Shown in pieces: positions 3,206 to 44,578 of a stretch of DNA of 64,000 nucleotides. The notes beneath the pieces are model-generated. The model worked only from the letters and a program-made list of their open reading frames with translations, made no database searches and was not told the origin of the DNA. The DNA lies in contig NC_087245.1 in assembly GCF_037042905.1 (NCBI RefSeq), forward strand, positions 2,296,001 through 2,360,000. The letters are read 5' to 3'. Position numbers and translations under genes: made by a program. Each line of letters starts with the position of its first letter. The stretch's first letter is position 1. This DNA is from Lytechinus pictus (taxonomy: Eukaryota).

Positions 3206-3785
3206 CAGCCCCGGGCTGAAAATATTTAGATCTAGATGAATAGAATAAAATTCAGGGCCAAATGCTGAAAAGTTCATTAGAATCGGATAAGTTATTGAAC
3301 TTCAACGATTTGCATCCCCCGGGTACTCTGGTGAAACAATTCTTGGCATGTCTTCATGAATATTCATTCGGTGGGCTGATTATGTCACATACTTTCCTTT
3401 TTCTTATGTCATTACATGAAATCATAATTGTTTCATTTTTCATTATGTAAATGATGTGTCTCAATTATTATGAAATACGTTGCAGTAAGAAATACATAAT
3501 GCACGTAATCAGTTATCAGTCCAATTGTTTAAGTCCTTGGTAGGAAACTTTTGAATTTATAGTACACCTAATTTTCATATAATAAAATACAAAAGAACAA
3601 GACAGTGGGGATATGGCATCATCAGCCCAAGGCTAATGAATATTCATGAAGACGAGCCTAGAGCTGTTTCACCAGAATAATGCAAATCTTTAATTGTTAT
3701 CTGATTTTGATCAAATTTTCAGCATTTTGCTATTTGAATTTTATTCTTTTTAGTGAAATATGTCCAGCCTGGAGCATCCCTTCAA
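3206..3785 (-). mobile_element. TTAA-AGGG family B MITE (Kolobok-like), degenerate copy
   Basis: GGGCTGAAAATATTT ... CAGCCTGGAGCATCCCTTCAA. It is the reverse-orientation homologue of 16123-16720. Confidence 0.7.
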
Positions 3786-5084: not shown

Positions 5085-5964
5085 AACTTGTGGCTCGTCA
5101 GAGTGCCCCCCTGCCCCCTCCCCCCCCCCCCCCCACCCCCGTAGGTACGCTAGTGATTACGATACGTAGACTGCAAAAGAGTAATATTCAAAATTCAAAG
5201 ATAAAATGCCAAATTCCAACGAGGATATACCGGTATTTTAGAGTCGGAAATTAATAGAGGAGCGATTGCATCTTGGCCTGAGCTAACAAAGTCAGGGAAT
5301 GGTAGGCAAGTTTCTTACAATTGCTTTATTATTGGTATTCGAGCCAAGCGATTGTCATCGCCTTTGAATTGGTATGGATTGGGGAGCGGCTACATAACAG
5401 TGCAGTACTACGAACTAGCTAGCGTGGAATCCATCGCTACTGCGGCGCTAGCTAGTGCAGCAGGCCTGGCCTGCCGCTGATACCTGCTCAGTGCATGCAG
5501 TGCGTGCAGATCGGCCGGAACGAAGCGGACAAAATTAGTTCTCCATCGTTCCGCCGATTTTTGGCTCCTCCCACTTTTCGACTCTGCCATGGAGGTGGGG
5601 CTAAAATCGTTCCCCGTTCCGACGCAGGATCCTGCAGGCGGATGGAGGAGAACGCCATCGATAATAAAACTACGGTCCCTTAGAGCACCTATTAACACCA
5701 AAATATAGACATTATAATTTGAAACAAAAATTTTATAGACTTTTTAAATCTGTCCCGTTTTTTTTTATACGCACTGTATATATATATATATATCTTACCA
5801 TAATCAGATATCACTTCAAAAAGGCTTTGCTCTACTCTACTTTGCTCCGCCGCCCTTCTTTTACCTCCCTATCCACATAACACTTGAACATCAACGTTGC
5901 TTCTCCCCCCCTCCACCACGCTTACACTTACGGTTTTCCCGGCTTCGCCACAGATTATTTCATT

Positions 5965-6729
5965 TTTCGGATTGACGAACCTTCGGAATAAAGAACCTTA
6001 TTTTGTTTTCGGATTATCGAACCTTCGGAAAAACTAACCTTATTTCGTTTTCGGATTAACGAACCTTCGGAACAACGAACTTTATTTCGTTTTCAGATTA
6101 TGGAACCTTCGGAACAACGAACCTTATATCGTTCTCGGAATAACGAACCTTATTCCGTTTTCAAACTGACGAACCTTTGGAATAACGCCACAAATGTTCG
6201 CATTAACGAACCCTTTTCTTTTTCGGTTTAACGAACATCGAGGTATAGGCAATTTACGTGTTTCGGAATTACGAACCTTCAGAATAACAAATCTTTGGAA
6301 TTACGGTTACACTTCGTAATTCCGAAGGTTCGTAATTCCGAAACACGTAAATTGCCTATACCTCGATGTTCGTTAATCCGAAAACGTAAAAGGGTTCGTT
6401 AATCCGAACATTTGTGGCGTTATTCCAAAGGTTCGATAATCCGAAAACGAAATAAGGTTCGATGTTCCGAAGGTTCGTTAGTCCGAAAACAAAATAAGGT
6501 TAGATAATCATTTAGTTTTCGGACTAACGAACCTTCGGAATTACGAACCTCATTTCTTTTACGGATTAACGAACCTTCGGAATTACGAACCTCACTTCGT
6601 TTTCGGACTAACCAACATTTGGAATTACGAGCCTCATTTCGTTTTCGGACAACGAACCTTCGGAATTACGAACCTTCGGAATATCCGAACCTTCTGAATA
6701 ACGAAGCTTAGGAATTACGAATGTATGCG
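5965..6729. mobile_element. AACGAACCTTCGGAAT-repeat MITE plus an adjacent inverted partial copy
   Basis: Dense ACGAACCTTCGGA/TCCGAAGGTTCGT motifs. 6160-6300 is the reverse complement of ~6315-6460, giving a palindrome centred near 6308. Confidence 0.7.
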
Positions 6730-7429
6730 CCAATCCCCATAGGCTTACTCGCAGTGGCACCACGTTCTGTTGGATCACATGCACGCAAACCACGCTATAC
6801 CGCAACTGCGCATCCATCAATGAAAGATATTCTCCTGCACAGGTTTCCTAGGCCGTAAGACAATACTTAAAAATGCTAAAATTTCAAGTTTTCAGACCTT
6901 ATAATATCAACAAATTTCGCGCTCTCATTAAATTTATACATAATTTAAATCTGTGTTACAACCTGGGTATCTATTACTGTTTTTCTGACTGCTATAAAAT
7001 ATTCCACCATCATAATTATCATTGTATGTATCTGACCTAAAAAGGCATGTGACACACAGCAGAAATTGGACAATCAATGTAATATAATTCAAGCTGATTT
7101 AAAAAAAAGTCGCCTTTGCAGACATTAATAATTAAAATCCATTTTTTGTGTGCTTATTCTTTCAGAATAATCAAGACAATCTGCTCAGTGTTTTGTATGC
7201 CAATACTTTTGAGATTTGAAAATTGACTTTTTAAAAATTAATCTATCCCACAATACAGTGCATTATTGTGAACAACTCATGCTTTTCTGCAGGCACACCA
7301 AAATTATCTTGTCATAATTATAAGTTTCAACAAATTCTTTCAATCATTTCTTCCTTGCGATTCAAATACCACCTTTTCATGTTATGTGAATCATGATGGA
7401 CAAAAAACACAATCATACGTTTATTTTAA

Positions 7430-7640
7430 ATTGGTCTAATGCTGATTTGTCCAATTACAAACTAATCTACTATCATTTGGTCTACCATCAGTTCATCCAC
7501 TATCCACATGGTCCAATTGCCATTTCATCTAATACAGATTTAGTTCATATAACATTTGGTCTAATTGGACCAAGTGTTATATGAACTAAAAAGGAATGAA
7601 AAGAAAATAGACCAACTGGTTATGAGACGAAATGGTCATA
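7430..7640. mobile_element. Left part of a GTCTA/TAGAC MITE split by the giant element (right part at 23170-23315)
   Basis: Ends ...GACGAAATGGTCATA and resumes at 23170 as TAGACCAACTGG...GGAATTTACC, matching the family at 1655-2000. Confidence 0.65.
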
Positions 7641-9460
7641 CCCTTGTAAAAAAAAACCATGGTTTGATGGTAAGGTAAAACCATGGTTTTGCATTGGATC
7701 CATCGTACAGTAATTTCATAGTTTAACCATAGTAAGATATGGTTTAATTATGGTGAAATCATGGTGCACTAGTGTTTAACCATAGTCAAACTATAGCTTT
7801 AGCATGGGTAAACCATGGTAACCATGGTTAAATGGTGTTAAATTGGAACGCACTTACCATGACATTACTATGGCATAACCATGGTCACAACTGTGTTTTT
7901 ACCATATTTTAACAATGGTTAAGAAAGTATAAAACCATGGTAAAGAGAAGGTGAAACCATGGTTAGAAAAAGGTGAAACCATTGTTTTACAGCTGCCAAA
8001 CCACATAATTACAACCCGAATCACGGTAAAACCATAATCAATTGTATGGTAGACCCACCTTTTGACCATAGTGCAATATTGTATGATGATGGTTAAACCA
8101 TGTCAAAGTACTGTCTAGCCATGGTTTAACCATGGTTTACCACGGTTAAACTATAGGTTTAGCATGGGTAAACCATGGTAACCATGGTTAAAAGGTGTTA
8201 AATTGGAACGCACTTACCATGACATTACTATGGCATAACCATGGTCACAATTATGTTTTTACCATAGTTTAACCATGGTTAAGAAAGTATAAAACCATGG
8301 TAAAGAGAAGGTGAAACCATGGTTAGAAAAAGGTGAAACCATTGTTTTACAGCTGCCAAACCACATAATTACAACCCAAATCACGGTAAAACCATAATCA
8401 ATTGTATGGTAAACCCACCTTTTAACCATAGTGCAATATTGTATGATGATGGTTGAACCATGTCAAAGTACTGTCTAGCCATGGTTTAACTATGGTGTAC
8501 CACGGTTAAACCATAGGTTTAGCATGGGTAAACCATGGTAACCATGGTTAAAAGGTGTTAAATTGGAACGCACTTACCATGACATTACCATGGCATAACC
8601 ATGGTCACAACTGTGTTTTTACCGTACTATAACCACGGTTAAGAAAAGGTGAAACTATGGTTAAGAAAGTATAAAACCATGGTAAAGGGTAGGTAAAACC
8701 ATGGTAAAGCGAAGGTGAAACCATGGTTAGAAAACGGTGAAACCATTGTTTTACAGCTGCCAAACCACATAATTACAACCCAGATCACGGTAAAACCATA
8801 ATCAATTGTATGGTAAACCCACCTTTTAACCATAGTGCAATATTGTATGATGATGGTTGAACCATGTCAAAGTACTGTCTAGCCATGGTTTAACTATGGT
8901 GTACCACGGTTAAACTATAGGTTTAGCATGGGTAAACCATGGTAACCATGGTTAAAAGGTGTTAAATTGGAACGCACTTACCATGACATTACCATGGCAT
9001 AACCATGGTCACAACTGTGTTTTTACCGTACTATAACCACGGTTAAGAAAAGGTGAAACTATGGTTAAGAAAGTATAAAACCATGGTAAAGGGTAGGTAA
9101 AACCATGGTAAAGCGAAGGTGAAACCATGGTTAGAAAACGGTGAAACCATTGTTTTACAGCAGCCAAACCACATAATTACAACCCAAATCACGGTAAAAC
9201 CATGATCAATCATATGGTAAAACCACCTTTTAACCATTAGTACAATATTGTATGATGATGGTTAAACCATGTCAAAGTACTGTCTAACCATGGTTTAACC
9301 ATTGTATACCACGGTTTAACCATAATGTGCCACAGTTAATCGATGGTTTCATTGTAGATAAACCATGGCTACCATGGTTTAACCGTGGTTACAACCTTGT
9401 TTTTATTGTGGTAAATCCATCGTTTCAAAGTGTCTTTACTATGGTTAAGAAAAGGTGAAA
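7641..9460. repeat. Left subterminal tandem array (units of 360, 360, 404 and ~404 bp), CCATGG-rich
   Basis: AGCATGGGTAAACCATGGTAACCATGG starts at 7801, 8161, 8521 and 8925. The duplicate ORFs at 8639 and 9043 are offset by 404 bp. Confidence 0.9.
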
Positions 9461-10077
9461 CAATTATTTAAAAACAGAAACAGCGATAACAAAAAGACCT
9501 TGGACCAGCAAATTTGACTGTTATATTGGGAATCTCTGTATATTGAGTTTCTAGTGTATCAGCGAAAGAAAAGAGTCAATTAAAATACAGTTACAATGTA
9601 CACATTCGGCTACATCATCAAAGAGCCACATTGGTGATGGTATAATAAGAAATTACATTTAAAATTGTAGGTCAGTCAGACAGATAATATGACAGAGGTC
9701 ATATTCCACACTACACATCGCCACTTATTGTATCAATCAGTGAGTGATCACACAATGACCTAAAAAGGGACAAAATGCAAATCAGTGTTAAGAACAACGC
9801 AATGAAAACTTTTAATAAAAATAAAGTCAAACACATCTAATACAGTACTACATGTACAGCTCTGGAAACATTACCCAAGTTAGCTGACAAAAGAGGCAAG
9901 TCTTTATACATGGCAGGTTTGAATACATATCTATAAAAGAACCCACATAAATTTTAATACATTCTTTATAAATTTTGTACTTTTCACACAAACAGTTAGC
10001 ACAGATAAGGCAAGCTAAACTAAGTAAGGAATGTATACATGTACTCCTGAAAACTGTTTTATTACTGCTGATTTCAT

Positions 10078-11810
10078 TAGGAGTGGGCTATAAATGGGTG
10101 ATTTTTGGTTTTACTGTGGCAACAGTTTTTTTGTATTCCTTTTACCTTATCTCAACATGAAATGACAATATTTTTTGTCTTGGGTCCGAGAAAAAAGTGT
10201 GCCGGGCCAAAATCCAAAATGGCCGCCAAAACCCCCTAAAATCACAGTTTTGGCCACAACTTGTTTATTTGGTGGTCTTTTTCTCTGGTTTTGGTGTCTA
10301 TTCATATGTTTTTAGGGGCAGGCAATTTGTTTTTCCTAAAATTAGTACTTGTAAAGCATTATTTGTAGAGTTAAGAGGTGATTTTACTTAAATTTTCAAG
10401 TTTTTAGACCCTGTTTTCAGCCCCAAATTAGGTTCCATTTTCTTGTGGTTCTTGGATATTAAACAATACCAGTTGATCAGTAGTAAGCAGCTAAATAGAG
10501 CTATATTGCTTTTATTCCAAAATTGGGGTTGATGGATATTTGCGAAATACATCTTATCAAATAAAATAAAATGTCATTTATCCATAGGGGCTGTAAGGTA
10601 TACAATGTACTGTACATAATACTGTACACTGCATATATCCATGCATTGACCACCATGACATATATGACAAGTCCTGAGTATAAACTATAGTGTCATAGTT
10701 TAAGTGAGCTCCTGAGGTTTAGAATTAGATTGTGACTTGTGAATTTGATTGCTTGTTAGCTGATGTACATGATGTAACCGGATGATAAACATAAATTGCA
10801 CATAAGCATCATGTACGTGTACATGTATATGTACGTACATCACATTTTTAGCAGGCTTTAGCCATATCTTCTTCGTTTGGAGGCTTGTTTTTACCTGGTG
10901 GTCTAACCCTATGTTTATGGGGTCAGGTAACTACCAAGGTAAAACTGATCAACGGCCAATCAGAATCAAGGATTCCATGCAAGTTACCATTGGACGGCAA
11001 AGTTACCATAATCAGAATAGCCACAGTGTAAGTGCCATAATGTGGGTTGACTACATGTATAATATAATCCATTGTTAATATTTTCCTCTCTCCACCCCCT
11101 GAATGAGCGTAATTGACAAAACATATGTCTTCAATTTCTGAGACAAAACATACAGTATCTTCATTTTTCAATAGCTCATTTCTATGACACTATAGTTTAT
11201 ATACAGACCTTGTCATGGTGGTCAATGCATGGACATACATGTATGCAGTGCAGTATGTACAATACAATGTATACTGTATAGCCCCTACGGATAAATAACA
11301 TTTTTTATTAAATATTATTTATTTCGCAAATATCCGTAAAACCCAAAGTAGAGGAATAAGAGCAATACATGTATAGCTATATGAAACTACTTGCTATTGT
11401 GGAGCTCGTATCGTCCAATATCCAAGAACCACAAGACAGTGAAACCTAATTTTTGGCTGAAAAAGGGGTCTAAAAATGTGTAAATTTAAGGAAAATCACC
11501 TTTTAACTCTACAAATAATGTTTTTTAAATACTAATTTCAGGTAAAACAATTTGCCTGCCCCCAAAAACATATGAATAGACACCAAAACCAGAGAAAAAG
11601 ACCACCAAATAGAGAAGTTGTAGCCAAAACTGTGATTTTGGGGGGTTCTGGCGGCCATTTTGGATTTTGGCCCGGCACACTTTTTTCTCGGACCCGAGAC
11701 AAAAAATATTGTCATTTCATGTTGAGATACATTACAAGGAATAGATAAAAACTGTTGCCATATTAAAATGACAAAAAAATTATTTTTGACCCATGTATAG
11801 CCCACTCCTA
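10078..11810. mobile_element. Foldback-like element with ~620-bp TIRs and a 7-bp TSD (hAT-like TAGG termini)
   Basis: ATTTCAT-TAGGAGTGGGCTATA ... TATAGCCCACTCCTA-ATTTCAT. 10078-10700 is the reverse complement of ~11183-11810. Confidence 0.85.
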
Positions 11811-12085
11811 ATTTCATATAACTGATTTGGCCAAGAAGACATGTTAGAAAGACTTTATACAAAAATTAAAAGAAAATAACTAGATGGATTCTCGACTGCA
11901 CACAGTCGAGATTTATGCCTCCGCCATTGCCACTAGATCAGAAATATGTTGCACAGGTAATTTCCCATAAATCTTCAAATTTGTTCTATTCTTTTTATAT
12001 TAAATAATTTATGCCTTATCCCAACATAAATAAACACTGAATGTTCAGTGCATGTTTGAGCTGCTAAGAAAAAAATTTACAGGCC

Positions 12086-12156
12086 GGCTCGGGTAGGAAT
12101 CGAACCCACGACCTTCTGGTTATCAGACAGGCGTAATACCACTTAACCACCGAGAA
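12086..12156 (-). pseudogene. tRNA-derived sequence (Thr-like body, GAT at the anticodon position)
   Basis: Reverse complement reads TTCTCGG-TGGTTAAGTGG...CCTGTCTGATAACCAGA...GTGGGTTCGATTCCTAC-CCGAGCC. A and B boxes are present with a T7 run downstream. The acceptor and anticodon stems are mismatched. Confidence 0.65.
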
Positions 12157-12254
12157 GCCCGATGGCTGGTAGCTGGTTTGATTCACATAATAGCAGCAGG
12201 TACAGTACTGTGTTGATATATCACATAATAGCAGCCAATAGCCATCGGGCTTAA

Positions 12255-12325
12255 TTCCTGGTGGTCTAGTTGTATGACGCCTGTCTAGTAACCAGGAGGT
12301 CGCGAGTTCGATTCCTACCATAGCT
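12255..12325 (+). pseudogene. tRNA-Thr(AGT)-derived sequence
   Basis: TGGTCTAGTTG...GCCTGTCTAGTAACCAGGAGGTC..GAGTTCGATTC resembles the eukaryotic tRNA-Thr anticodon arm. The acceptor stem is decayed. Confidence 0.65.
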
Positions 12326-13428
12326 GGCCTGAACATTTGGTGTTCACTTATATTTGGATAAGGCAAAAATTATTCAATAAAATTAAATCTACCCAACGGA
12401 AAACCTTGATTGATATTTTCTATTATCATATTGATCACTCTCATATATGCATCCAAGAACCATTAATATTGAATCTACAAGCAATTGTGACAAGAGACAT
12501 GAACTCTTAGACCTTTGAACTTCTCAAGTCAATGTCATTTGCATTGTCCATATTTGAAATTGATCTATCGAAGTCTTTGGTTTATCACAAGAACAATTTC
12601 ATGCATACACTGACCTACAATCAAACTTGATATATGAAAATAATTTTTAGTATTCATAAAACACAAGAAAATTACTAAATGGATAAAAAAGTTGTAAGTA
12701 TATGACCTTTATGACCTTTGAACTTGGCCCTGCAACCCCCCCAAATTACCCCCCCCCCTATATCAAGCATATATGTACCAAGTTTGGAGTTACTTCCTCT
12801 AACATTTTTTTAGTTACACAAGAACAAGATATTTTAAGGCATACTGACCTCCGTGACCTTTGACCATGTGACCCCAAAATCCAATCAGATCATTCTCCCT
12901 CTATTATGTATATAAAGAATGTACCAAGTTTGAAGTTATTAGCTCCAATGGTTAAGTTATCACAAGAACAGGACATTTTAAGGTATATAACGACCTCTGT
13001 GACCTTTCACCCGTGACCATAAAATCAAAACAAAGTATTATCCCCCCAGGATATACCCTCATACCAAGTTTGATGTAAAACCACTCCACGGTTCTTGAGA
13101 TTTCGACAAAACAAAACGGGACGGACGTACGGACGACCCGAAAACGTAATGCCTCCGGCCACTTCGTTGGCGGAGGCATAAAAAATCATAAATATTCTAA
13201 ATAAATTAAGAGTTAGCACAGATATGTCAAGCTTAATTAAGTATGGAATGCAGAATGATGTCATATACTCCTGAAAACTGTTTTTTTTTTGCTGTTGATC
13301 TTATAAGATTTGGTTTGACTGAGAAGACAAGGTAGAAAGACTATATGTATATACAAAAAAAAATCCCTGAATAAACTAAATAAATTAATGTACTTTTCAC
13401 ACACAGAGGTAGCACAGATATGGCAAGA

Positions 13429-13995
13429 TTAAAGGACAAGTCCACCCCCCCAAAAAAAAACAAAAAAACAAACAAACCTTGATTTGAATAAAAAGAGAAA
13501 AATTCAACAAGCATAACACTGAAAATTTCATCAAAATCAGATGTAAAATAAGAAAGTTATGACATTTTAAAGTTTTGCTTCATTTCACAAAACGCTTATA
13601 TGCACACCTCAGTCGGTATGCAAATGAGGGAACTGATGACATCACTCACCCACTATTTCTTTTGTATTTTATTATATGAAGTATGAAATATTTTGATTTT
13701 CTCGTCATTGTCATGTGAAATGAAGTTTCATTCGTCCCTGAACACGTGGAATTCAATTATTTTAACATTTTGTGCTTCAGGCAAGGAGGTCCTAATCATC
13801 AAATTCGTAAAAATTGAAATATTGTATAATTCAAACAATAAAAAACAAAAGAAATAGTGAGTGACATCATTGGCTCACCTAGTTGTGCATATCACTGTTT
13901 TGTTGAAAATAAGCGAAACTTTAAAATTTCATGCTAGTTTGATTTTTCTCTATTTATTCAAATCAGCATTTTCCTGGGGTGGACTAGACCTTTAA
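13429..13995 (+). mobile_element. TTAA-AGG family A MITE (Kolobok-like), copy 3
   Basis: TTAA-AGGACAAGTCCACCCC ... GGGGTGGACTAGACCT-TTAA, with a TTAA TSD on both sides. Confidence 0.88.
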
Positions 13996-14049
13996 TTTGA
14001 AGATTAGAGACATTGAGTCAAATTTTCAAAAACAGTCAATGAAACATAC

Positions 14050-14440
14050 ACTACTCAATGCATCCTCTTCCCAGTGATACATGCTAGCAGGTTTTACATC
14101 CATATTTCATACTGTTAAGGTGACATTGCATTAACAAAGATATTACCTGAATTTCACAAATTTACTTTCGAGCTACATATTCCAAAATATATCCAGATCA
14201 TCTCCTATAGTGGTACATGTTAGCACCAAGTTTCACATTTATATTTCAAATTGTTAAGGTGACAATGTGTTTAAACAAATAAATTTCACAAATTGACCTT
14301 TGACCTACATATTCCAAAATCCATTCAAATCGTCTTCCTAATGATGGTACATGTTAAACACCAAGTTTTTTACATCCATACCTCAAGCTGTTTAGGTGAT
14401 ATTGCTTTGACAAGAAAATAACCTGAATTTTACATACAAG
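14050..14440. repeat. Degenerate tandem units (~145 bp), HINE-like remnant
   Basis: Repeated GGTACATGTTA..ACCAAGTTT..CAT..TGTTAAGGTGAC and ACCTACATATTCCAAAAT motifs. Confidence 0.5.
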
Positions 14441-14662
14441 GACCACATATGAAGTTCACACCTTACGCAGTCTTGAATAAATTAAGTTTATGAGCAAGTT
14501 TGGATAATCCATGTGGAGTTAGAAGTTTCCAATACATTCTGTAAATCACTGTAATAGGGAAACATTGAGTAAGCAACTCTATCAACGTCCGTCAGCATTC
14601 AATCAATCTCGGGATATTCAGTATATTTCAAAATCTGGTGAGAAAACTCTGCATAGATTACC

Positions 14663-14850
14663 TGATCCTCATCAAAGAGCCAAGGATACTTCAGTCGGTC
14701 ATCAGTGATCCTTGGCCGAGGGACAGAATTTATGATCCATGCCCTTCTGTCTGCCAGTGTCTTCTGCATGCAGAACTCAACTCTCTTGAAGTCTGGCTGC
14801 CTTTTTTTCAGTGCTCATCCACTCTATGTGCCTTGCAACAGTGTCAGATT
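14663..14850 (-). pseudogene. Exon remnant of a SAMD3-like accessory protein (second ORF of animal EnSpm/CMC elements)
   Basis: Manual translation: ...VARHIEWMSTEK(frameshift)KRQPDFKRVEFCMQKTLADRRAWIINSVPRPRITDDRLKYPWLFDEDQ, then GTAATC (possible donor). This matches the M..T...RR..I...+P.L motif as I recall it for that family. Confidence 0.65.
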
Positions 14851-15329
14851 TGGAAAGAATAAAAAATTATACTTAAAAAAAGAAAAAACAAAGAATAAAA
14901 AATTATACTTAAAAAAGAAAAAACAAATAGATTTAGAATCCTCATTCATTTAGTTTCTGTCAAATCACTTTTCATCCGAGTCCTTAATAGATCTTATTTA
15001 CAGCAAATTTTACTATAATAGCAAGTTTTATGCAACGACACGCCAGTCTTGTTGCCAAAGACAAGAACAGAAAAGCTCCACTTGGTCACACTTTGCGACT
15101 ATCTGTCACAAACACACTGTACCAGTTAACATTTGGTGAAAGACCATAGCAGAACCATATACATGCGAATTAGACTAAAATATTAACTTTAGGTAAAATC
15201 TAACAGAGAAATGCATTACAAAATGTCACAACAATGTAGCCACTGTAAGATTCCTGCATCAATAGTGATACTCAAACATTAGTAAGTTATAATGCAAGAA
15301 ATATTCTCATATTTTATGCATTTACTCAC

Positions 15330-15440
15330 ATTTACTTAATTCATCAACTCTTAAGGTGCCCCATACACGTTTAAAGCGTTTTTACTGGCCAAGTTCTAAT
15401 CCTCTTTAATAATCCTTCTGGTTGAGTCTCATATATAACT
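15330..15440 (-). pseudogene. Possible decayed SAM-domain exon of the same gene
   Basis: Reverse complement reads MRLNQKDY*RGLELGQ*KRFKRVWGTL (SAM-like L...D...GL.LG..+ pattern) and ends at a GTGAGT donor. Confidence 0.3.
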
Positions 15441-15605
15441 ATGTCATGTGAAAAAGAGAAATGCCTTTAAGTTTGGCCATTATCAAGTAATATATTTATC
15501 TAGAAGGATGAATCAATTGCCAAAGAAATTAAATGGCATGCACTTGGGCAAGACTATGGCACATTGAGAGTTAATTGGGGTTTCTGTTTGGTACCAGATA
15601 CTTAC

Positions 15606-15872
15606 TCTCCACCATTCACCAGTTGCTGTGCACCGAGGACCACAGGTAGTTTGTAATTTTTACTCTCAATGGCCCTGTCACAAGTTCGTCCTCTTCCATG
15701 TCTGCAAAATCGTAGAATTTGTCTTGCCATGTCTGCAGGAAAAATATCTTCTTCTTTCACTCCAAATGTTGTGCACACCACCCTAAGCAGCTCCTGTTTT
15801 GAGGTCTCCTCTGACGTGTTGGTTACCAACACCCTTCTTTGATTTTGGCCATATATCAATAAAAATTTGTAC
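15606..15872 (-). pseudogene. Exon encoding a PB1/ubiquitin-fold-like N-terminal domain of the same gene, 1-bp frameshift
   Basis: Acceptor TTTTCATTCCAG and donor GTAAGT. Translation: YKFLLIYGQNQRRVLV...ELLRVVCTTFGVKEEDIF(fs)LQTWQDKFYDFADMEEDELVTGPLRVKI. Confidence 0.6.
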
Positions 15873-16122
15873 CTGGAATGAAAAGTAATTGATTTTCTTA
15901 CTAAACCTGAATTTTGAATAAATAATGTATGCAAAGAGCTTTCAGGATAAATGTGTGTAATCAAAAGATATTGCATGTACATGGACACAAATATTCAGTT
16001 TTTGCCTCGATGCAAGAGGCAAACAAGACATATTCCAATGTTTGTCTGGGTTTGGTGATACATATTCCATTCATTTATCTTTTTTTCTAGTATTAGTTTC
16101 CTGTCTTCGAATATTAGTAAAC

Positions 16123-16720
16123 TTGAAGGGATGGTCCAGGCTGGAAATATTTATATCTCAATAAATAGAAGAAAATTTACAGAGCAAAATGCTAAAAATT
16201 TAATCAAAATCGGATAACAAATAAAGTTTTTGAATTTCAAATGATATTATTCCGGTGAAACAGTTCTAGGCATGTCTTTATGAATATTCATTAGGTTGGC
16301 TGGTGATGTCATATCCCCACTTGTTCTTTTGTGTTTTATTATGTGAAATTTGGTTTAATAAAAAAATTGCTACCAAGAACTAAAACAATTGGATTGACAA
16401 CTGATTAAGTGGACTAGTTATTTATTGCCTCAACTTATTTCATCATAATGGAGACACATCATTTACACATGTATGAAAAAATGAAACATTTACGATGTCA
16501 TGTAATGACATAAGAAAAAATTGAGATGTGACATCATCAGCCCACCTATTGAATATTCATGATGATGTCCATATTCCAAAAAATATTGATAAACTTTGAA
16601 AATCAATAACTTTGTTATTTGATATCCAAGTTTGATGAAATTTTCAGCATTTTACTGTGAATTTTACTCCATTTATATACTTTTAGATATAAATATTTTC
16701 AGCCTGGACCATCCCTTTAA
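16123..16720 (+). mobile_element. TTAA-AGGG family B MITE (Kolobok-like)
   Basis: TTGAAGGGATGGTCCAGGCTGGAAATATTTATATCT ... AGATATAAATATTTTCAGCCTGGACCATCCCTTTAA, long TIRs. Confidence 0.85.
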
Positions 16721-18919
16721 CTTCCCGCTACCAGGAAAGAAAATTGTATTGTAGTCTATTAAAAATTTTGATTTGAAATTAAAATACAGTACTATTACGA
16801 CACAACGGTCCAGCGATGGTATTTCCATTTTTCATCACATGAAATTTCATTCATTTCATAATAACCAACCATACTTAAAATTCATACAAATTTCAGACAA
16901 TTCCACTATTAGTGACACATATGGAACAACACTTCCTAAATTAATAACTTAACCCATTTGTGACGAAATTCCACATTACGTGGTTTGGCATCGGATTTTT
17001 CATGAATAGTTGTAGGGCCTATATATGAAAATACCAAGGAGACTCGAAAGTAAACACTAGAACTATTGGCATTACTTTTCTTTTGGTAACAATCATCGCC
17101 GCTATGGCTAGGGAAATGCGCATATCTTTCAGTTGTGTACAACTGTGTCCTAGATCTACTATCGTAATGTGCATGCATGCTGTAGAAATCGTCGAAACAA
17201 GGAGCCAGCCACGTTCCCACAACCACACTCTGAACTTACCAAAAAAAAAACAGATTTTCACATGGAAAAACATATACAGACATATGAATTGTACTCCCGC
17301 TTAAAAATAAAGGATTTATTAAAACATACTACTTTGCAGCTAGCTGATCCATTGATCAAGTATTACTAATTAAATGAGGACTAATTAACCCGCAGTAGCA
17401 GAGTCTGTAGCCTAGGCCTAGAGACTAGACCCATCAAAAAAAAAAAGAATACAGATCAGTGGACTGAATGCTGTTGCCGTTCAAAAGTATAACATTAATT
17501 AGGACCACCGACACCGTACTCTAACCGTTAACGTAAACTTTAAAAAGTTAAAGTATAGATCTAGATCTAGACTAGACCCTAGTCGATAGTCTAACGATAA
17601 TTAAGCCAGTAGGAGATCTAGTACAAAATTTTTCTTCATACTCGATGGCAGCCAACAAGTTTTTTTTCAGGTAGGCCAAGCGCTAGCCTAAGTTAGGCCT
17701 AGGCTAGGGCCGGGACTAGGCTACGAGTACGACGTGTTCCACCATATAGATCTAGTCCAAAGGCAAAGTCCAAGGCAAGCTCAAGGCAAGCCTATAATAT
17801 ATAGCCATAAATAACTTTTAGGCCCTACATGTAGCCAGCCCCAATGCCTGGCTTCAACTTCAAGTTGAAGTCAGAATACATTTCTAGACCCATGCAACAC
17901 TCCTAATCAAAATAAATGCAGCAACATTACAGACTAAGCCTAGGCAAACTCTTGAAATAATCCACTGCACTGACAGTGACACTGCCTGCTGCAGAGTGCA
18001 GTACAGTACGGGACTACTAGGGCTTGGTACGGTACGCGCACAATCCGCCGAGTGTTCAATTTCCGAGTCATGCAAGGCCAAGGAGGTGCCAGGAGTGGAC
18101 TAATTCACGAGAATGCCCAACAGATTACTGATTAGATAAGCTTACTTACCGTTAACTATCTCCTGACAGTTCCATAATTTGTCTGTTCTCCTATAGTTTC
18201 AGTTAAAAAATTAGTTGAATGCAGTTAATTGCCTGAATTTCATGAACTTGAAGCTTAGCTAGCCCTTGGCCTTCGAAGCATTAAGCTGATTGTATCTGCA
18301 CGGCGTACGTGTGTGTACGTGTGCATTTGTCTATGGTGTGTATATCATACATGTGCGGGTTGTGCGTTACACATGTGGTACTCGGTGGTACTAGTACATC
18401 GACGCGCATAAAAAAAAGGCGCGAAAATGAGCGGGAGGGGTGGGTGGGGGGGGGGGGCAGGCGGGGAATGCGCGAAATTCGTGTTGAACACAATTATAAA
18501 GTAGACAGGTTCAAAATGACAAATGATATATATGTACGTATAGACAGACAATGTTTAGTGACTGGGCAGACATATTTTGAAATTATACAAAAAGATAATA
18601 TAGTCCTATAATTAAAAAAAAAAACACCAGCGGCCACCCCCGGCCCGACTACCTTCAAGATCAACAACAACGGCCCTGCTTATATAGTTAGTAATTCAGG
18701 TCGCAGGCCTTTATAATTTTAGTCATGCCTTTGGATGGCCGAAAGTTAGTCGTACAACATTATGAGGTGTACGTATGCCTCATTTAGTCAGAAACCACAA
18801 ATGGTGTTAGTCAAGCCTGTCTTTTTACCAAATACGAGTAATGAAAAACCTTCGTTAGTCCACAGCTGAGTTAGTCGTGACAAGCTTTATAGGCCCAGAC
18901 TAACAAAGTTAGTACCTTG

Positions 18920-21900
18920 CGGTAAAACGGGAATTTAATCATGGTTTTGTAACCAATGTTTTTACACTTTCATTAAACCACGGTTAAAACCATGGTTATA
19001 TATAACAATCATTTTCAAACTATCATAAAACCATGGTTAAAATCATGGTGTATAACCGTCGTTTTCAACCTTGGTAAAACGCAAATTTAACCATGGTTTT
19101 GTAACCACTGTTTTTACACTTTCATTAAACCACGGTTAAAACCATGGTTATATAACCATCATTTTCAAACTATCTTAAAACCATGGTTAAAATCATGGTT
19201 TAAAACCGTCGTTTTCAACCTTGCTAAGACGAATGTTTAACCATGGTTTTGCGTAACCACTGTTTTGACACTTTCATTAAACCACGGTTAAAACCATGGT
19301 TATATAACCATAATTTTCAAACTATCATAAAACCATGGTTAAAATCATGGTGTATAACCGTCGTTTTCAACCATGGTAAAACGGAAATTTAACCATGGTA
19401 CCACTGTTTTTACACTTTCATAAAACCACGGTTAAAACCATGGTTATATAACCATAATTTTCAAACTATTATAAAACCATGGTTAAAATCATGGTGTATA
19501 ACCATCGTTTTCAACCATGGTAAAACGGAAATTTAACCATGGTATTAATTGTAACCACTGTTTTTACACTTTCATTGAACCACGGATAAAACCATGGTTA
19601 TATAACAATCATTTTCAAACTATCATAAAACAATGGTTAAAATCATGGTGTATAACCATCGTTTTCAACCATGGTAAAACGGAAATTTAACCATGGTATT
19701 GTAACCACTGTTTTTACACTTTCATTAAACCACGGTTAAAACCATGGCTATATAACAATCATTTTCAAACTATCATAAAACCACGGTTAAAATCATGGTG
19801 TATAACCGTCGTTTTCAACCTTGGTAAAACGGAAATTTAACCATGGTTTTGTAACCACTGTTTTTACACTTTCATTAAACCACGGTTAAAACCATGGTTA
19901 TATAACCATCGTTTTCAAACTATCTTAAAACCATGGTTAAAATCTTGGTTTATAACCGTTGTTTTCAACCTTGCTAAGACGAATGTTTAACCATGGTCTT
20001 GTAACCAATGTTTTTACACTTTCATTAAACCACGGTTAAAACCATGGCTATATAACAATCATTTTCAAACTATCATAAAACCATGGTTAAAATCATGGTG
20101 TATAACCGTCGTTTTCAACCTTGGTAAAACGGAAATTTAACCATGGTTTTGTAACCACTGTTTTTACACTTTCATTAAACCACGGTTAAAACCATGGTTA
20201 TATAACCATAATTTTCAAACTATCATAAAACCATGGTTAAAATCATGGTGTATAACCGTCGTTTTCAACCATGGTAAAACGGAAATTTAACCATGGTATT
20301 GTAACCACTGTTTTTACACTTTCATTAAACCACGGTTAAAACCATGGTTATATAACCATCATTTTCAAACTATCATAAAACCATGGTTAAAATCATGGTG
20401 TATAACCGTCGTTTTCAACCATGGTAAAACATAAATTTAACCATGGTATTGTAACCACTGTTTTTACACTTTCATTAAACCACGGTTAAAACCATGGTTA
20501 TATAACCATCATTTTCAAACTATCTTAAAACCATGGTTAAAATCATGGTGTATAACCGTCGTTTTCAACCTTGGTGAAACGGAAATTTAACCATGGTTTT
20601 GTAACCACTGTTTTTACACTCTCATTAAACCACGGTTAAAACCATGGTTATATAACCATCATTTTTAAACTATCTTAAAACCATGGTTAAAATCATGGTG
20701 TATAACCGTCGTTTTCAACCTTGCTAAGACGAATGTTTAACCATGGTTTTGCGTAACCACTGTTTTGACACTTTCATTAAACCACGGTTAAAACCATGGT
20801 TATATAACCATAATTTTCAAACTATCATAAAACCATGGTTAAAATCATGGTGTATAACCGTCGTTTTCAACCTTGCTAAGACGAATGTTTAACCATGGTT
20901 TTGCGTAACCACTGTTTTGACACTTTCATTAAACCACGGTTAAAACCATGGTTATATAACCATAATTTTCAAACTATCATAAAACCATGGTTAAAATCAT
21001 GGTGTATAACCGTCGTTTTCAACCATGGTAAAACGGAAATTTAACCATGGTACCACTGTTTTTACACTTTCATAAAACCACGGTTAAAACCATGGTTATA
21101 TAACCATAATTTTCAAACTATAATAAAACCATGGTTAAAATCATGGTGTATAACCATCGTTTTCAACCATGGTAAAACGGAAATTTAACCATGGTATTAA
21201 TTGTAACCACTGTTTTTACACTTTCATTGAACCACGGATAAAACCATGGTTATATAACAATCATTTTCAAACTATCATAAAACAATGGTTAAAATCATGG
21301 TGTATAACCATCGTTTTCAACCATGGTAAAACGGAAATTTAACCATGGTATTGTAACCACTGTTTTTACACTTTCATTAAACCACGGTTAAAACCATGGC
21401 TATATAACAATCATTTTCAAACTATCATAAAACCATGGTTAAAATCATGGTGTATAACCGTCGTTTTCAACCTTGGTAAAACGGAAATTTAACCATGGTT
21501 TTGTAACCACTGTTTTTACACTTTCATTAAACCACGGTTAAAACCATGGTTATATAACCATCGTTTTCAAACTATCTTAAAACCATGGTTAAAATCTTGG
21601 TTTATAACCGTTGTTTTCAACCTTGCTAAGATGAATGTTTAACCATGGTCTTGTAACCAATGTTTTTACACTTTCATTAAACCACGGTTAAAACCATGGC
21701 TATATAACAATCATTTTCAAACTATCATAAAACCATGGTTAAAATCATGGTGTATAACCGTCGTTTTCAACCTTGGTAAAACGGAAATTTAACCATGGTT
21801 TTGTAACCACTGTTTTTACACTTTCATTAAACCACGGTTAAAACCATGGTTATATAACCATCGTTTTCAAACTATCTTAAAACCATGGTTAAAATCTTGG

Positions 21901-23167
21901 TTTATAACCGTTGTTTTCAACCTTGCTAAGACGAATGTTTAACCATGGTCTTGTAACCAATGTTTTTACACTTTCATTAAACCACGGTTAAAACCATGGT
22001 TATATAACAATCATTTTCAAACTATCATAAAACCATGGTTAAAATCATGGTGTATAACCGTCGTTTTCAACCTTGGTAAAACGGAAATTTAACCATGGTT
22101 TTGTAACCACTGTTTTGACACTTTCATTAAACCACGGTTAAAACCATGGTTATATAACCATAATTTTCAAACTATCATAAAACCATGGTTAAAATCATGG
22201 TGTATAACCGTCGTTTTCAACCATGGTAAAACGGAAATTTAACCATGGTATTGTAACCACTGTTTTTACACTTTCATTAAACCACGGTTAAAACCATGGT
22301 TATATAACCATCATTTTCAAACTATCATAAAACCATGGTTAAAATCATGGTGTATAACCGTCGTTTTCAACCATGGTAAAACATAAATTTAACCATGGTA
22401 TTGTAACCACTGTTTTTACACTTTCATTAAACCACGGTTAAAACCATGGTTATATAACCATCATTTTCAAACTATCTTAAAACCATGGTTAAAATCATGG
22501 TGTATAACCGTCGTTTTCAACCTTGGTGAAACGGAAATTTAACCATGGTTTTGTAACCACTGTTTTTACACTCTCATTAAACCACGGTTAAAACCATGGT
22601 TATATAACCATCATTTTTAAACTATCTTAAAACCATGGTTAAAATCATGGTGTATAACCGTCGTTTTCAACCTTGGTAAAACGGAATTTTAACCATGGTA
22701 TTATAAATACTGTTTTTATGCCATCATAAAACCATGGTTTAAATCATGGTTTTATAACATTGATTTCCAACCTTAGTAGAACGGGAGTTAAACCAAGGTT
22801 TCCTAACCATTGTTTTTATACTACTGTGAAACCATGGTTACAACCATGGTTAAATTACTATGGTTTTTTCACCAAAGTAGAACGATGATTTTGTCATGGT
22901 TTTATAACTATTGTTTTTTAACTTTCTTAAAACTGTGGTATAATGATGGTTTTTATAACCATGGATTTAAAATCGTCATAAAATGACATTTTTATCATGT
23001 TATTATAACTATGGTATTTTAACAATGGTATTACCACACTTCCGCCACACATTTACCTTGGTTATGAATTTAAAACCATGGACTACCATCGATCCATTGT
23101 AAAACCGCCCCTAACCATGGTTATACCATGATTACGGTTGTAAAACCATGGTTTTTTTTTATAAGGG
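18920..23167. repeat. Right subterminal satellite: ~25 monomers of 150 bp with higher-order duplication, then a degenerate tail
   Basis: TATAACCGTCGTTTTCAACC recurs at 19801, 20101, 20401 and 20701 (2x150 bp). Diagnostic variants recur at an offset of ~1652 bp. Confidence 0.95.
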
Positions 23168-23429
23168 TATAGACCAACTGGCGATTAAACAAAGTGATTA
23201 TGGGACTAAATGGTTGTTTGACGAAATGTTAATGAACAGGATGGTATTAGACTGAATGAAGGTAGACCTTGTGATGAGTGGACGTGTTGGCAGTTGACAA
23301 ATTAGGAATTTACCCAATCATCATCTGGACTGAGATTTGAAGTTCCATTTCCTCTGTGTATGTACGCCTATTGCATATGAGTGGAACAATGACCATCATA
23401 GACAAGACCAATATGGGGAGAATTTGAGT

Positions 23430-33833: not shown

Positions 33834-34595
33834 CCCGGGGGGGGGGGGGCCAGTCAAATATATTGCTGTACACACGCGTGACCCAAAAACGCGATTAAAG
33901 GGGTGTTTCTTCAGTTCTGGCCGCGGGCCGCGCGTGCACTCGTTAAGGGTATCAAAAACACTGATTTTCAAAAAAAGGGGTATTTTTGAAAGACTGGTAT
34001 TTTTAGGGTATGTTTTTTTCACAGATTGTGATGAGTGGACGTGTTGGCAAAAGACAAATTAGGAATTTACCCAATCATCATCTGGATTGAGATTTAAAGT
34101 TCCATTTCCTCTGTGTATGTACGCTCCTATTGCGTATGAGTGGAACAATGACCTACATAATGAAAATCAGGGGACCGCTTTATGAAAGTGAAAAACTTGA
34201 CTTTCTCTAACAGATACCATAGTAACAGAGGCCAGTGCCTCTCAGCCAATCAAAACCAAGAATTTGGTATAAAAAACGCTGATTTTCAAGAAAAAGGTGG
34301 TTTGAAAGACTGGTCAATGGTCAATCATGGGGTCAAACATATTTAGGGTATTTTTTTCCCAAAAGCTTTTTTTAAGAGTAGTCAAACGTGTTTGGGGTAT
34401 GTTTTTTCCCCAAGCTTTTTCCCCGGGGTCATATTCTGCCGACAACTTGATTAGGGGCCAATATGTGTAAATTAAGCCCACAAAACCTTGTTTAGGGGGT
34501 TATTTTGCATACAAAGAAAAACTTGTTTAGGGGGTGTTTGGAAATAATTTTGCCACGCGTGTGTACAATACATTGACTGCCCCCCCCCCCCCGGG
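33834..34595. mobile_element. CCCGGG-terminus MITE with a 7-bp TSD
   Basis: ACGTTTA-CCCGGGGG..CAGTCAA...GTACACACGCGTG / CACGCGTGTGTAC..TTGACTG.CCCCCGGG-ACGTTTA. Truncated relative at 52568-52650. Confidence 0.88.
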
Positions 34596-40750: not shown

Positions 40751-40755
40751 AGGGG

Positions 40756-41306
40756 CCCGGGGGGGCCACTTCCATTCACGAGTGGATACCATGCGCGACC
40801 ATGGGGTCTCGAAAAGCACCCTAAACACGTAATTTCCATATTCTGAAAATGCACCCCTTAACAAGTATTGGCGTGTGAAACCCTACCCTTAACAAGCATT
40901 GGAAACAAAACGATACTCTTGGCAAATATTCCTTGAAATGAACCCCTAAACAAGTACAGGAATGGTTTATTGTTACGGGTCCTTCGGTCGTCGGCTTTAC
41001 CTTATTTGGTTTAGTACGACCCCACCTTCTACACCTCGCGCAAATCGGACTCTAAACACGAAGTGTTGGGGCAAAATGGACATCCTTTATAAAACATTTT
41101 AATTTTGTTTTATCATTCCCGCAAATTCGACCCTAAACACGTAATTTTCCTAGCGAAATAGACACCCTTTTTTCATTATTTTTGTGTTTTTGACACCCTT
41201 ATCACGTTACGTACGTAACGTGCCCTATCGTGAAAAGGACATCCTTTTTACGTGTTTTTTTGGTCGCGCATGGTATCCACTCGTCAATGTAAGTGGCCCC
41301 CCCGGG
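40756..41306 (+). mobile_element. Young 551-bp CCCGGG-terminus MITE with an 8-bp TSD, copy 1
   Basis: GGGAGGGG-CCCGGGGGGGCCACTT...AAGTGGCCCCCCCGGG-GGGAGGGG with ~43-bp TIRs. Near-identical inverted copy at 57373-57922. Confidence 0.95.
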
Positions 41307-42821
41307 GGGAGGGGACTGCTTGCTATGAATGACTTGAGCTAAGGACGAACCTTCCTACGTCACGTCTCCTGCAACTTTTAAGACTAAAGTGACACCAGAA
41401 CTGGCAGAGTGGACAATTACATCCAGAGCATGCCGACAATGGTCAGCATAGCTTCATTAATACTGAATAGGCTATTTCAATGCCTAAAAAGACAGGGGGT
41501 TGAGACTTGGCCATTGATCATCGATCGCAACGACAATTGGCACGCGCGTTACCCATGGCCTAAATTATATTCACTTTGTTTTGTTTTAAATAATCAATTA
41601 ACACCGAAATAATCAACTACTCAATTAGGAAGACAAGGATTAAATATCTAACTTGTCATTAATTAACCATGTACAAGAGAAGTAAGAAGAATTATATTAA
41701 CTAAATAATCCATCAAGCCAGAATAAAAAATAAAGAATAAAAGAGAGGATTGAAACCAATTTTAAACCTATAAAAGGGAGCTAAATAAAAAGAAATCAAG
41801 ACCGGCTGAAAACTTATACGGAAAGCTGGAGAAATAATTCAGGTTTCAAACCTAAACAGAGCAAAAGTGACGCACGAAACTTCCGCTGTGAAGCTAGGGT
41901 GGAAATATTCAGTGAATCATTCACGTAACAAAAGACGGGGATAAATCATGTCAGGGCATCCAACAAAAGTGCATCATGCAAGAGAGAGCGTGGAAAGGCA
42001 ACGGGATGACAAAGATCTCACATAGGCACCATGTACAAAAGGTACACGGCTGAATGGAGAAGCAATTTAGAAAATCGCTTAATATGTCTCACTCAGAGAA
42101 TTTTTTAAGAACCAAAACACCAATACCAAAGTAATAAGGGTTGGCAATGAATCTGGTGCAAAGTAAACAAACAAAATGCCATATAAACTGTATTTTGGAA
42201 GTGTACTTAGCTCTTTCACAAAGAGATTTCTTCACTGCAAAAGAAAAGCAAAGATGAAGATAGAGAGTTAAACCTTCGGAAGTGCATGGTTATAGTTCGA
42301 CAGGAGATGGCGCTGTTGCAATTTTTAATTGTTTACTATATTCGAGGGCAGTTCATTAAATATAAACTAGCAAAACTACATGGATACATCACGATTATTG
42401 AAGTAAATCATTTTATCCTCTATATATGGTCCATTCCTATACAAATATTACAAGATAAATTGTTAGGAACTACCCAGAAAAAATATATCTACATAGCTTC
42501 ATATTTATAGGTCATAAAAGCATGTCAAATGATTCTATAATCCCTATATACATTACTGTGTAGTTAAATATTTGTATTTTCCTGCGGTACATCATAGAGC
42601 AGGATTTTTTTTTTTTGTATATGCACATTCATGAATGATTACGTAACGGGTTCTGTGGAAGCGGGAAGGTTTGAATACTTTTATGCAGGTGGAAGTTTAT
42701 TGTGCTTGAGGAGAAAGGAATGTCGGGGAAGGTATAATTGGGAAGGAGAAAGGCGTGGGAGCCATTCTAGCTTTGTCAGATCTTCTTACAACACGCAGAC
42801 TGAGTCGGGGGCAGAGACAGC

Positions 42822-43560
42822 ATGGAGTCGACAGACATCGCTAATTTAGTCCGAGAAGAGGTTTTGGAGACGCAAAACACTCTACTTATTAAGCTAGAAA
42901 CGCTCGTTTCAGAAAAGCTAAATAATTTCCAGAAGGAAATAAGCAATTCACAACCAGTTTTGAGCAAAGTACAGATCACTAAAATCCAGGAGTTAAAAAG
43001 CACAGCCTTCAAGTTAAAAAAGAAGGTCAACAAAGAGCAGTATAAGATAAACACTAAGATCTATCAGAAATTCGCGGAAGCTGAAGCTATTCTCAAACAA
43101 GATCCTGAAATAAACGCCGCTACTTCGTCTGACTTAGAAAAAATCTCAGAAGGTAAAGACATTTTAAAGCACAGGCAGAAGATAATTAAACTAGCCGACC
43201 AGTCTCTGTTTGGTTGGCTCACAGAATACGAAATGAACTCTTATCGCTCAAGGTTCGGACGACAAGAAGAAAATTTGGAAGGCAGAGGCCAGGGCAAAGC
43301 GAAAGATGAATCAAGCGCCACGAAAGAAATTTGTTCCTCTTTCTTGCCCATATGGTCTCGAGAAGCAGCCAACCCCTATTTCGTCTTGGCCCAGCGTCAA
43401 ACCTCATGGACAGCATTGGGACTTCAAGAGGAGAACTGGGGCTTGCTTCGCTTGTGGGAAGTTCGGGCACTGGCGTTTCGAATGCAGAGATGTGACATCC
43501 AACAAGGAAGCAAGTAAAGAAAAGATAATTCAAATTTTCACGTTCAGTTCGATAATGTGA
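42822..43560 (+). pseudogene. DIRS/PAT-like ORF1 (gag-like) with a CCHC zinc knuckle, frameshifted
   Basis: KHRQKIIKLADQSLFGW..EY motif in ORF 42822-43517. CFACGKFGHWRFEC lies in the shifted frame 43306-43560. Confidence 0.8.
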
Positions 43561-43859
43561 ATTTTCAGAATAATGAAAGTACATTTGCAAACGGCAAAAA
43601 AGTTACAGAGGTTGAGATAAATTCTGAATCGGGTTTTAATCTGAAAACTCCTGTTGGAAGGCTAAAAATCGCAAAAGAAAAATGGAAAGAAATTGGAACT
43701 TGTCATTGTATTTTGGATGTGAAGAGAAATATGCAACAGTTTGAATACAAGAGCCAGTTGGCAAGCACCAATTAAGGTTGGAAGCGAGACAAAAGAAGAT
43801 ATCAATTTTCGGTTACATAATGTTGACTGCTTGAATGAAATAAGCAAAATACCGAATTG

Positions 43860-44578
43860 TACTATGTTTACAGATGCAGCAGAAACCGGTTTCGGTGGTT
43901 TTGTAGCCAATTGGAGGAACTGGTGGTTACTGGAAGTTGGTCAAAGAGTGAAAAGGAAATGACTGGGCAGAGTGTTCAGTTGAACACTGATAACATAAAT
44001 GTTGCAACCATGTTGAAATGGGGAGCAAGAAGAATGATTTACATTCACAAGTTATCAGTATATATGATAAATGTAAATCAGGTAATATAAGTATTCAGCC
44101 AGTATGGATAAGAAGGGAGATTAACCACATAGCAGATGGCTTGAGCAGAAAGGGAGATAGTGATGATTGGTGTATTGATGAGAATGTATACCAGAATTTA
44201 GATATTTTATGGGGTCCATATGATATCGACAGGTTTGCTAATAAATACAATAACAAATGTGTCAGATTCCATTCCAGATGGTGGTGTCATGGTACAAGTG
44301 GCATAGACGCTTTTAGTCAATCGTGGAAAGATTGCATTAATTGGTGGGTTCCTCCCCCAAGATTAGTTAACAAATCGATCAATAAAATAGTAAAAGAAAG
44401 TGTAAACGGTACATTGATCATACCTCTTTGGAAATACGCTCCATTTTGGCCAAAAATAAATCAAGATGGTGAATTTGTATCATTTGTAAAAGAAAAAAAA
44501 ATGTTTGATTCCAGTATAACAAGTATAACAATGGTATATTCGGTAATAGCAAATACCGGTTCGGGATGGTTGCAATGA
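43860..44578 (+). pseudogene. DIRS-type RNase H followed by a DNA N6-adenine methyltransferase-like domain
   Basis: FTDAAETGFGG(fs)GSWS..TDNINV..WGSKK..PVWIRREINHIADGLSR, then DDW...WGPYDIDRFA..N.KC.RF...IDAFSQSW....NWWVPPP...GTLIIPLW..APFWP. Confidence 0.9.

Follow-up and report, generated by a model that had tools for sequence, protein, structure and literature searches.

A 15.5-kb insertion bearing satellite arrays at both ends in Lytechinus pictus: a probable non-autonomous derivative of a two-gene CACTA/EnSpm transposon

The window analysed is a stretch of 64,000 bp of the genome of Lytechinus pictus (contig NC_087245.1, positions 2,296,001 to 2,360,000), and all positions given here count from its first letter. 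Between 7641 and 23167 it contains two tandem satellite arrays, the remnants of a broken gene and several nested repeats, enclosed by a pair of short terminal inverted repeats (TIRs) and flanked on either side by one half of a small host repeat. The features are summarized in Table 1.

Table 1. Features of the 15.5-kb insertion and its flanks
Feature	Position	Strand	Remarks
Host repeat, left half	7419..7640	.	MITE-like, ~370 bp when whole
Whole element	7641..23167	-	15,527 bp; based on TIR pair and orientation of accessory gene
Left TIR	7641..7665	+	starts with CCC, includes AACCATGGTT
Left subterminal zone	7666..9460	.	motif-rich head and tail in single copy around a 360/404-bp tandem array (7788-9324)
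Nested foldback element	10079..11809	.	arms ~640 bp at 82%; removal restores a block repeated at 13185-13432
Nested element	11879..13184	+	~146-bp internal repeats, 3' GC hairpin
Hairpin element	11995..12382	.	inverted tRNA-like arms; inside the element at 11879-13184
Nested TTAA-flanked MITE	13433..13991	.	related copies at 67-652 and 2062-2639 (68-71%)
Broken accessory-gene exon	14662..14850	-	55% to XP_071811273.1 over 51 aa; frameshift near 14805; 5' part missing
Broken accessory-gene exon, N-terminal domain	15606..15872	-	frameshift near 15745, probably a second near 15655; AG/GT signals by eye
Nested MITE flanked by TTGA/TTAA	16127..16716	.	TIR 27/28; related copy at 3211-3785 (74%)
CpG-rich non-coding stretch upstream of accessory exons	16720..18920	-	no transposase remnant
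Right array	18921..22758	.	150-bp monomer of three ~50-bp subunits
Degenerate subterminal repeats	22759..23142	.	~50-bp period, continuous with right array
Right TIR	23143..23167	-	24/25 against left TIR
Four extra bases (TATA), then host repeat, right half	23168..23315	.	

The sequence at 7641-7665 is identical to the reverse complement of 23143-23167 except for one mismatch, and TA adjoins the element on both sides, which confirms the matching 25-bp TIRs with flanking TA reported in the initial annotation. The TIR pattern matched twice in the 64-kb window and not once in each of 100 shuffles. All 25-mers of the left zone were compared in inverted orientation with all those of the right zone; the TIR pair was the single register above 21/25, and hence it is not a by-product of the motif shared by the two zones. 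Short TIRs beginning with CCC are also those of animal CACTA/EnSpm (TRC) elements. No long inverted alignment was found between the two arrays, the inverted match being limited to 25 bp; a foldback element as a whole was rejected, since the arms are not inverted copies beyond this length. The TIR pattern was also found once in viral contigs and twice in metagenome contigs; none of these matches was kept, and all three were rejected as chance, since they lie in gene-dense DNA of phage- or bacteria-like character that lacks subterminal repeats. A search of viral contigs for related loci gave 29 pattern matches, none of which was confirmed.

On the minus strand, at about 1655-2001, lies an intact copy with which the left half of the host repeat joined to the right flank is collinear. 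The alignment score of the joined flanks was 213.5, versus 149 for the left half alone and a maximum of 166.5 over 500 random right halves. Contigs of the public runs X1, X7, X15 and X16 (four of 20 runs) were aligned to 6900-8140, an alignment that covers the left end only (1,241 of ~16,000 bases), with the unique flank at 6900-7400 uncovered; among these contigs there was no empty allele of the locus. At position 7640 the reference is left by 16 contigs of X15 and by 15 contigs of X16, whose consensus, compared by eye, agreed with 23172-23201 at 26/30 (X15) and 25/30 (X16) bases; these departing contigs are other copies of the host repeat. The proposal that one MITE had been split (7430-7640 and 23170-23315) thus agrees with the intact copy and with the contigs, except for its start: other contigs set the left end of the host repeat at 7419, not 7430. 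The end of the host repeat with ~85 bp of flank (23269-23400) is duplicated at 34026-34159 (92.5%), apparently inside another repeat.

The uninterrupted host motif contains one TA, and the filled site contains TA before the element and TATA after it, i.e. four extra bases at one site with both flanks, where a simple TA duplication would give two; the TA target duplication is therefore ambiguous. The four extra bases fit a TA duplication in a host copy already carrying an additional TA, a 4-bp duplication (CATA/TATA) in which one base has since changed, ends of the form ACCC...GGGT with an AT duplication, or ends of the form TACCC...GGGTA with zero duplication. In X15 record 12, the match begins exactly at 7641 after 1,647 letters of a different flank, and CCC is therefore favoured as the end of the element; a contig of X7 (record 24), which aligns from 7637, four bases outside the CCC, is weaker and points in the opposite direction.

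The two arrays, initially described as ~9.5 kb apart, are separated by 9.6 kb. The left array comprises units of 360, 360 and 404 bp with 10-14 mismatches between units, and the right array comprises 25.6 copies of a 150-bp monomer. Both are built on AACCATGGTT, a palindromic 10-mer that is part of the TIR, in agreement with the earlier proposal that the terminal motif gave rise to both satellites. When up to two mismatches are allowed, the left array has 49 sites of AACCATGGTT, most often spaced 22 and 11 bp apart, and the right array has 212 (spacings 12-14, 25 and 22 bp); the density of motif sites is 32-55 per kb in the terminal zones, against 0.5 per kb in the interior and 0.8 per kb outside. 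CCATGG is distributed similarly: both terminal zones hold 14-22 per kb, the 9.5-kb interior holds none, and the DNA outside holds 0.1-0.3 per kb. Both ends hence carry a short motif that is repeated subterminally, a trait of animal CACTA/EnSpm elements. The arrays had been said to end in the TIRs; the TIRs do enclose both, but the left array stops ~150 bp and the right array ~400 bp before reaching them, and the gaps are filled with degenerate, motif-rich DNA.

The head and tail of the left zone, both in single copy, overlap with the left unit, and the right monomer fades into degenerate repeats of equal period as far as the TIR. The subunits of the right monomer share 34-40 identities in 51-55 columns, and 24 monomers of the right array carry 8.7 changes on average. 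Within the right array, a block of 558 bp (offset 1,952) and another of 313 bp (offset 1,652) recur without any difference, which records recent multi-unit duplications. A comparison of the left and right monomers scored 93 in direct and 69.5 in inverted orientation, and neither score was reached in 300 shuffles; the null kept only exact motifs, and the test therefore says nothing about a common origin of the two monomers. Other tandem repeats in the window are a ~160-bp satellite of 7 kb (54200-61200), broken by a 553-bp element (57373-57924) of which a copy with 98% identity lies at 40754-41306, and inverted arrays of 16- and 42-bp units at 5955-6721, which form a small foldback-like element. 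A series of decayed open reading frames on the plus strand at 42804-44578, the last with a match to a Dam-like methyltransferase (Pfam, E 3e-6), has a layout that resembles a DIRS/Ngaro retrotransposon.

Six-frame reading of the sequence revealed two coding remnants on the minus strand that were missed in the initial annotation. The 71-aa translation of one exon, used as a phmmer query among 1.84 billion proteins, gave 17 matches (best E 4e-14), two of which, P0011 and P0015, are apparently repeat proteins of no relation; the same exon matched nothing in a word-indexed search. The homolog XP_071811273.1, annotated as 'sterile alpha motif domain-containing protein 3-like' of Apostichopus japonicus, was searched against the window by tblastn and matched at 14808-14656 (55%, E 1e-12) and, in two frames, at 15904-15655 (E 6e-7). 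The two remnants are collinear with their order in XP_071811273.1 and together cover ~150 of its 590 residues; residues 85-342 and 407-590 left no trace in the interior by tblastn or profile search. Both ends of the exon at 15606-15872 lie in one open frame and its middle matches the homologs in another, as if by two compensating frameshifts.

No Pfam family was found for the two exon translations or for nine of the 11 phmmer matches scanned, the 'SAMD3-like' protein included; the other two are unrelated repeat proteins. Pfam detected no SAM domain in XP_071811273.1, and a sequence search of the PDB and searches of the Atlas yielded no named family at a usable score. The predicted fold of a full-length homolog had a mean pLDDT of 55, and a consistent class, ubiquitin-like, emerged for its N-terminal domain alone (best Z 8.7; rmsd 4.0 across 81 residues), with no Foldseek match at E<=0.001; this low-confidence homolog model suggests a ubiquitin/PB1-like fold for the accessory N-terminus. 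The middle domain, folded from a single sequence (pLDDT 51), was too poor for use.

The accessory gene reads on the minus strand, and 23167 is therefore the element's likely 5' end. The CpG-rich stretch at 16720-18920 is likely to hold the promoter and the first intron of this gene. The observed/expected ratio of CpG is 0.8-1.2 in 12 of 13 bins across 16641-23140 (0.5 in the other bin) and 0.25-0.52 in the left zone, a profile in keeping with a 5' end on the right that bears a promoter. On the plus strand at 17640-17675, within the CpG-rich stretch, an ATG with a splice-donor-like site after it faces the right array.

The link between the accessory gene and a transposase was drawn from gene models of two sea cucumbers, at the level of proteins and accessions rather than of their DNA or element ends. 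XP_071839080.1 (829 aa, isoform X1) and XP_071839081.1 (the accessory protein, isoform X2) have consecutive accessions, as does a twin isoform pair on another long contig; KAJ8032742.1 and KAJ8032740.1 of Holothuria leucospilota are near neighbours by accession, on a contig of equal length, and in the gene models PIK50491.1 and KAJ8017622.1 the transposase ORF is fused with the homolog of the first of the two exons described here. Transposase_21 was matched by six of 12 ORFs of ~800 aa that were scanned (best E 9e-6), all below the Pfam curated cut-off; XP_071839080.1 gave no Transposase_21 match at E<=0.05. These protein similarities indicate, indirectly, that the interior would derive from an element with a Transposase_21-type ORF. 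Neither the element nor the rest of the window contains a trace of this transposase ORF by tblastn with 119 proteins or by profile search (best E 1.5), and the sole tblastn match inside the element was to the accessory part of a fused gene model. An autonomous CACTA/EnSpm element was rejected, as the transposase ORF is absent from 7641-23167, and the earlier designation as non-autonomous stands. Since the accessory remnant is present and the transposase gone, the element appears to be a deletion derivative of a two-gene element.

The interior consists mostly of old repeats and AT-rich DNA, among which five nested elements were recognised. The element at 11879-13184 is putatively Helentron-like; one arm of the hairpin element inside it was identified as tRNA-Ile by ARAGORN and scored 40.8 bits in Rfam, which returned nothing beyond this tRNA-like arm. 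Three units of ~137 bp at 14073-14434 were rejected as a sixth nested element, sharing 37 of 48 bases with the Helentron-like core. A degenerate tandem block of ~200-bp units (9967-10078 with 11812-11878, and 13185-13432) is broken by nested insertions. Without the nested elements, and with one unit per array, ~6.5 kb of the element remains. The foldback arms are 82% alike and the MITEs 68-74% alike to their other copies in the window, versus one difference in 187 bases for a copy of the left end, and the nested elements are therefore taken to be older than the landing of the element at this site, on the presumption that foldback arms were identical at the start. The count of at least five nested elements given initially is upheld, but they were likely already in the body when the element landed and not gained at this site.

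The copy of the left end just cited is X15 record 12, which matched 7641-7827 with one difference (1/187 bases) next to its different flank. Many contigs of run X7 contain the left end. The tandem joint of the left unit was seen in all four runs (X1, X7, X15 and X16), among which there are three organism labels, and one contig of X7 joins 7861 to sequence like 9388-9417 (28/30 by eye), i.e. an array-less form. It follows from the joint in four runs and the array-less form that the left array is a trait of the family; it probably varies between copies.

Taken together, 7641-23167 is best explained as one insertion, a non-autonomous deletion derivative of a two-gene animal CACTA/EnSpm transposon (probability about 0.85). 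The paired ends, the split host repeat and the gene remnant support the proposal of a single element that encloses both satellites, and the accessory-gene remnant adds strength to its assignment to the CACTA/EnSpm type. There is a small chance that the insertion is a single element with other limits or of another superfamily, i.e. ACCC...GGGT with an AT duplication, TACCC...GGGTA without duplication, or CCC...GGG with a 4-bp duplication in a piggyBac-like element (CATA/TATA, 3/4). The first two limits agree with the uninterrupted host motif at every base and the third agrees if a single substitution came afterwards, and the start of X7 record 24 at 7637 also favours limits outside the CCC. The exact start of X15 record 12 at 7641 speaks against them, and the link of the gene remnant to Transposase_21-like ORFs against another superfamily; for piggyBac, the flanks are CATA and TATA and the target is not TTAA. 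A clean 2-bp repeat, moreover, was kept in just seven of the 14 SmTRC1 copies described in the available text of PMC1636069.

It is very unlikely that two independent short elements of one family came together by adjacent insertion or rearrangement, with host DNA between them. Such an origin would accord with the mainly old repeats and AT-rich DNA of the interior, and the data, which cover the left end only in four of 20 runs, hold no second full copy. Each orientation of the TIR, however, occurs once in the window, and no partner lies further in; the two outer flanks, put back together, restore one host repeat to within four bases; and the interior contains a transposon-linked gene remnant. 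Least probable, and barely so at all, is that the element is a real CACTA derivative whose arrays are captured host satellites or neutral passengers. The two monomers do differ in length and structure, and CACTA elements with captured satellites are known (available text of PMC8978399), but the 10-mer on which the arrays are built belongs to the TIR itself, the right array passes gradually into the degenerate ~50-bp repeats that reach the TIR, and the left unit overlaps its single-copy head and tail.

For the single CACTA/EnSpm derivative, the following history may be proposed. The parent element would have contained, from its right end, a promoter, the transposase gene and then the spliced accessory gene, and an internal deletion would have removed the transposase and most of the accessory exons; the derivative would then have been moved in trans by transposase supplied from elsewhere. 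At the right end, a ~50-bp subterminal unit may have been fixed as a 150-bp trimer and amplified to ~25 copies, and at the opposite end a 360-bp block may have been amplified to ~4 copies, in both cases presumably by tandem duplication through slippage or unequal exchange. The nested elements would have entered the body before the copy at 7641-23167 landed. By analogy with TnpA of maize, the accessory protein would bind the AACCATGGTT motif.

CCC termini and duplications of 2 bp characterise the CACTA elements of animals (PMC1636069, PMC4298943). SmTRC1 of Schistosoma mansoni and Spongebob_HMa/EnSpm-4N1_HM of Hydra resemble the present element in their TIRs starting with CCC and their truncated copies, and putatively in a short target duplication. 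SmTRC1 has a tandem-repeat region at its 3' end in the available text of PMC1636069, whereas the arrays described here are at both ends, and animal TRC elements measure ~4.7-5.8 kb (PMC1636069, PMC4298943), in contrast to 15.5 kb for the present element, which is without a transposase and has a duplication of ambiguous length. As in maize En/Spm, where TnpA and TnpD are two products of one unit, two products come from one unit in the homologous sea-cucumber loci; short subterminal motifs at both ends and deletion derivatives moved in trans are further points of likeness (PMC2613891, PMC1636069), and in En/Spm the accessory protein binds the subterminal motif (PMC2613891). Unlike in En/Spm, the N-terminus of the accessory homolog is predicted to be ubiquitin/PB1-like and its DNA binding is putative, the motif is palindromic, and the subterminal zones extend over kilobases rather than hundreds of bases.

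Large CACTA elements with internal tandem arrays are already known (PMC8978399, PMC4290129). The Jozin CACTA element of Chenopodium quinoa is similar in size (16.5 kb) and has a 5.5-kb array (32.5 x 171 bp) near one end; its array is treated as captured and its transposase is present in the available text of PMC8978399, whereas both arrays of the present element are built from the terminal motif. CACTA elements of wheat reach up to 30 kb and contain tandem motifs (PMC4290129), and a CACTA-derived satellite is on record (PMC7320549). For Tetris TIR-220 and Xmix/Xstir, the satellite monomer likewise comes from repeat-rich ends of DNA transposons (PMC9659126); these are foldback or MITE elements, in contrast to the present element, the arms of which are not inverted copies. 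A literature search, thin on subscription journals, found no paper that ties the SAMD3-like gene to CACTA elements.

The copy at 7641-23167 is decayed, and it illustrates clearly how both ends of a single transposon can take the appearance of two unrelated satellites; when such satellites are annotated separately, the 15.5-kb element is missed. A further proposal, again by analogy with maize, is rather unlikely: that the 'SAMD3-like' protein is the animal counterpart of TnpA and reads AACCATGGTT, that defective copies with more than 250 sites (mostly 11-14, 22 and 25 bp apart) out-compete or titrate the autonomous element, such that the satellites would be selected platforms rather than products of neutral slippage, and that the CpG-rich 5' array keeps the promoter open. 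The analysis puts forward a candidate DNA site for a widespread accessory protein of animal CACTA elements, labelled 'SAMD3-like' in databases, and, if the binding is true, the route from transposon binding site to satellite would be directly testable.
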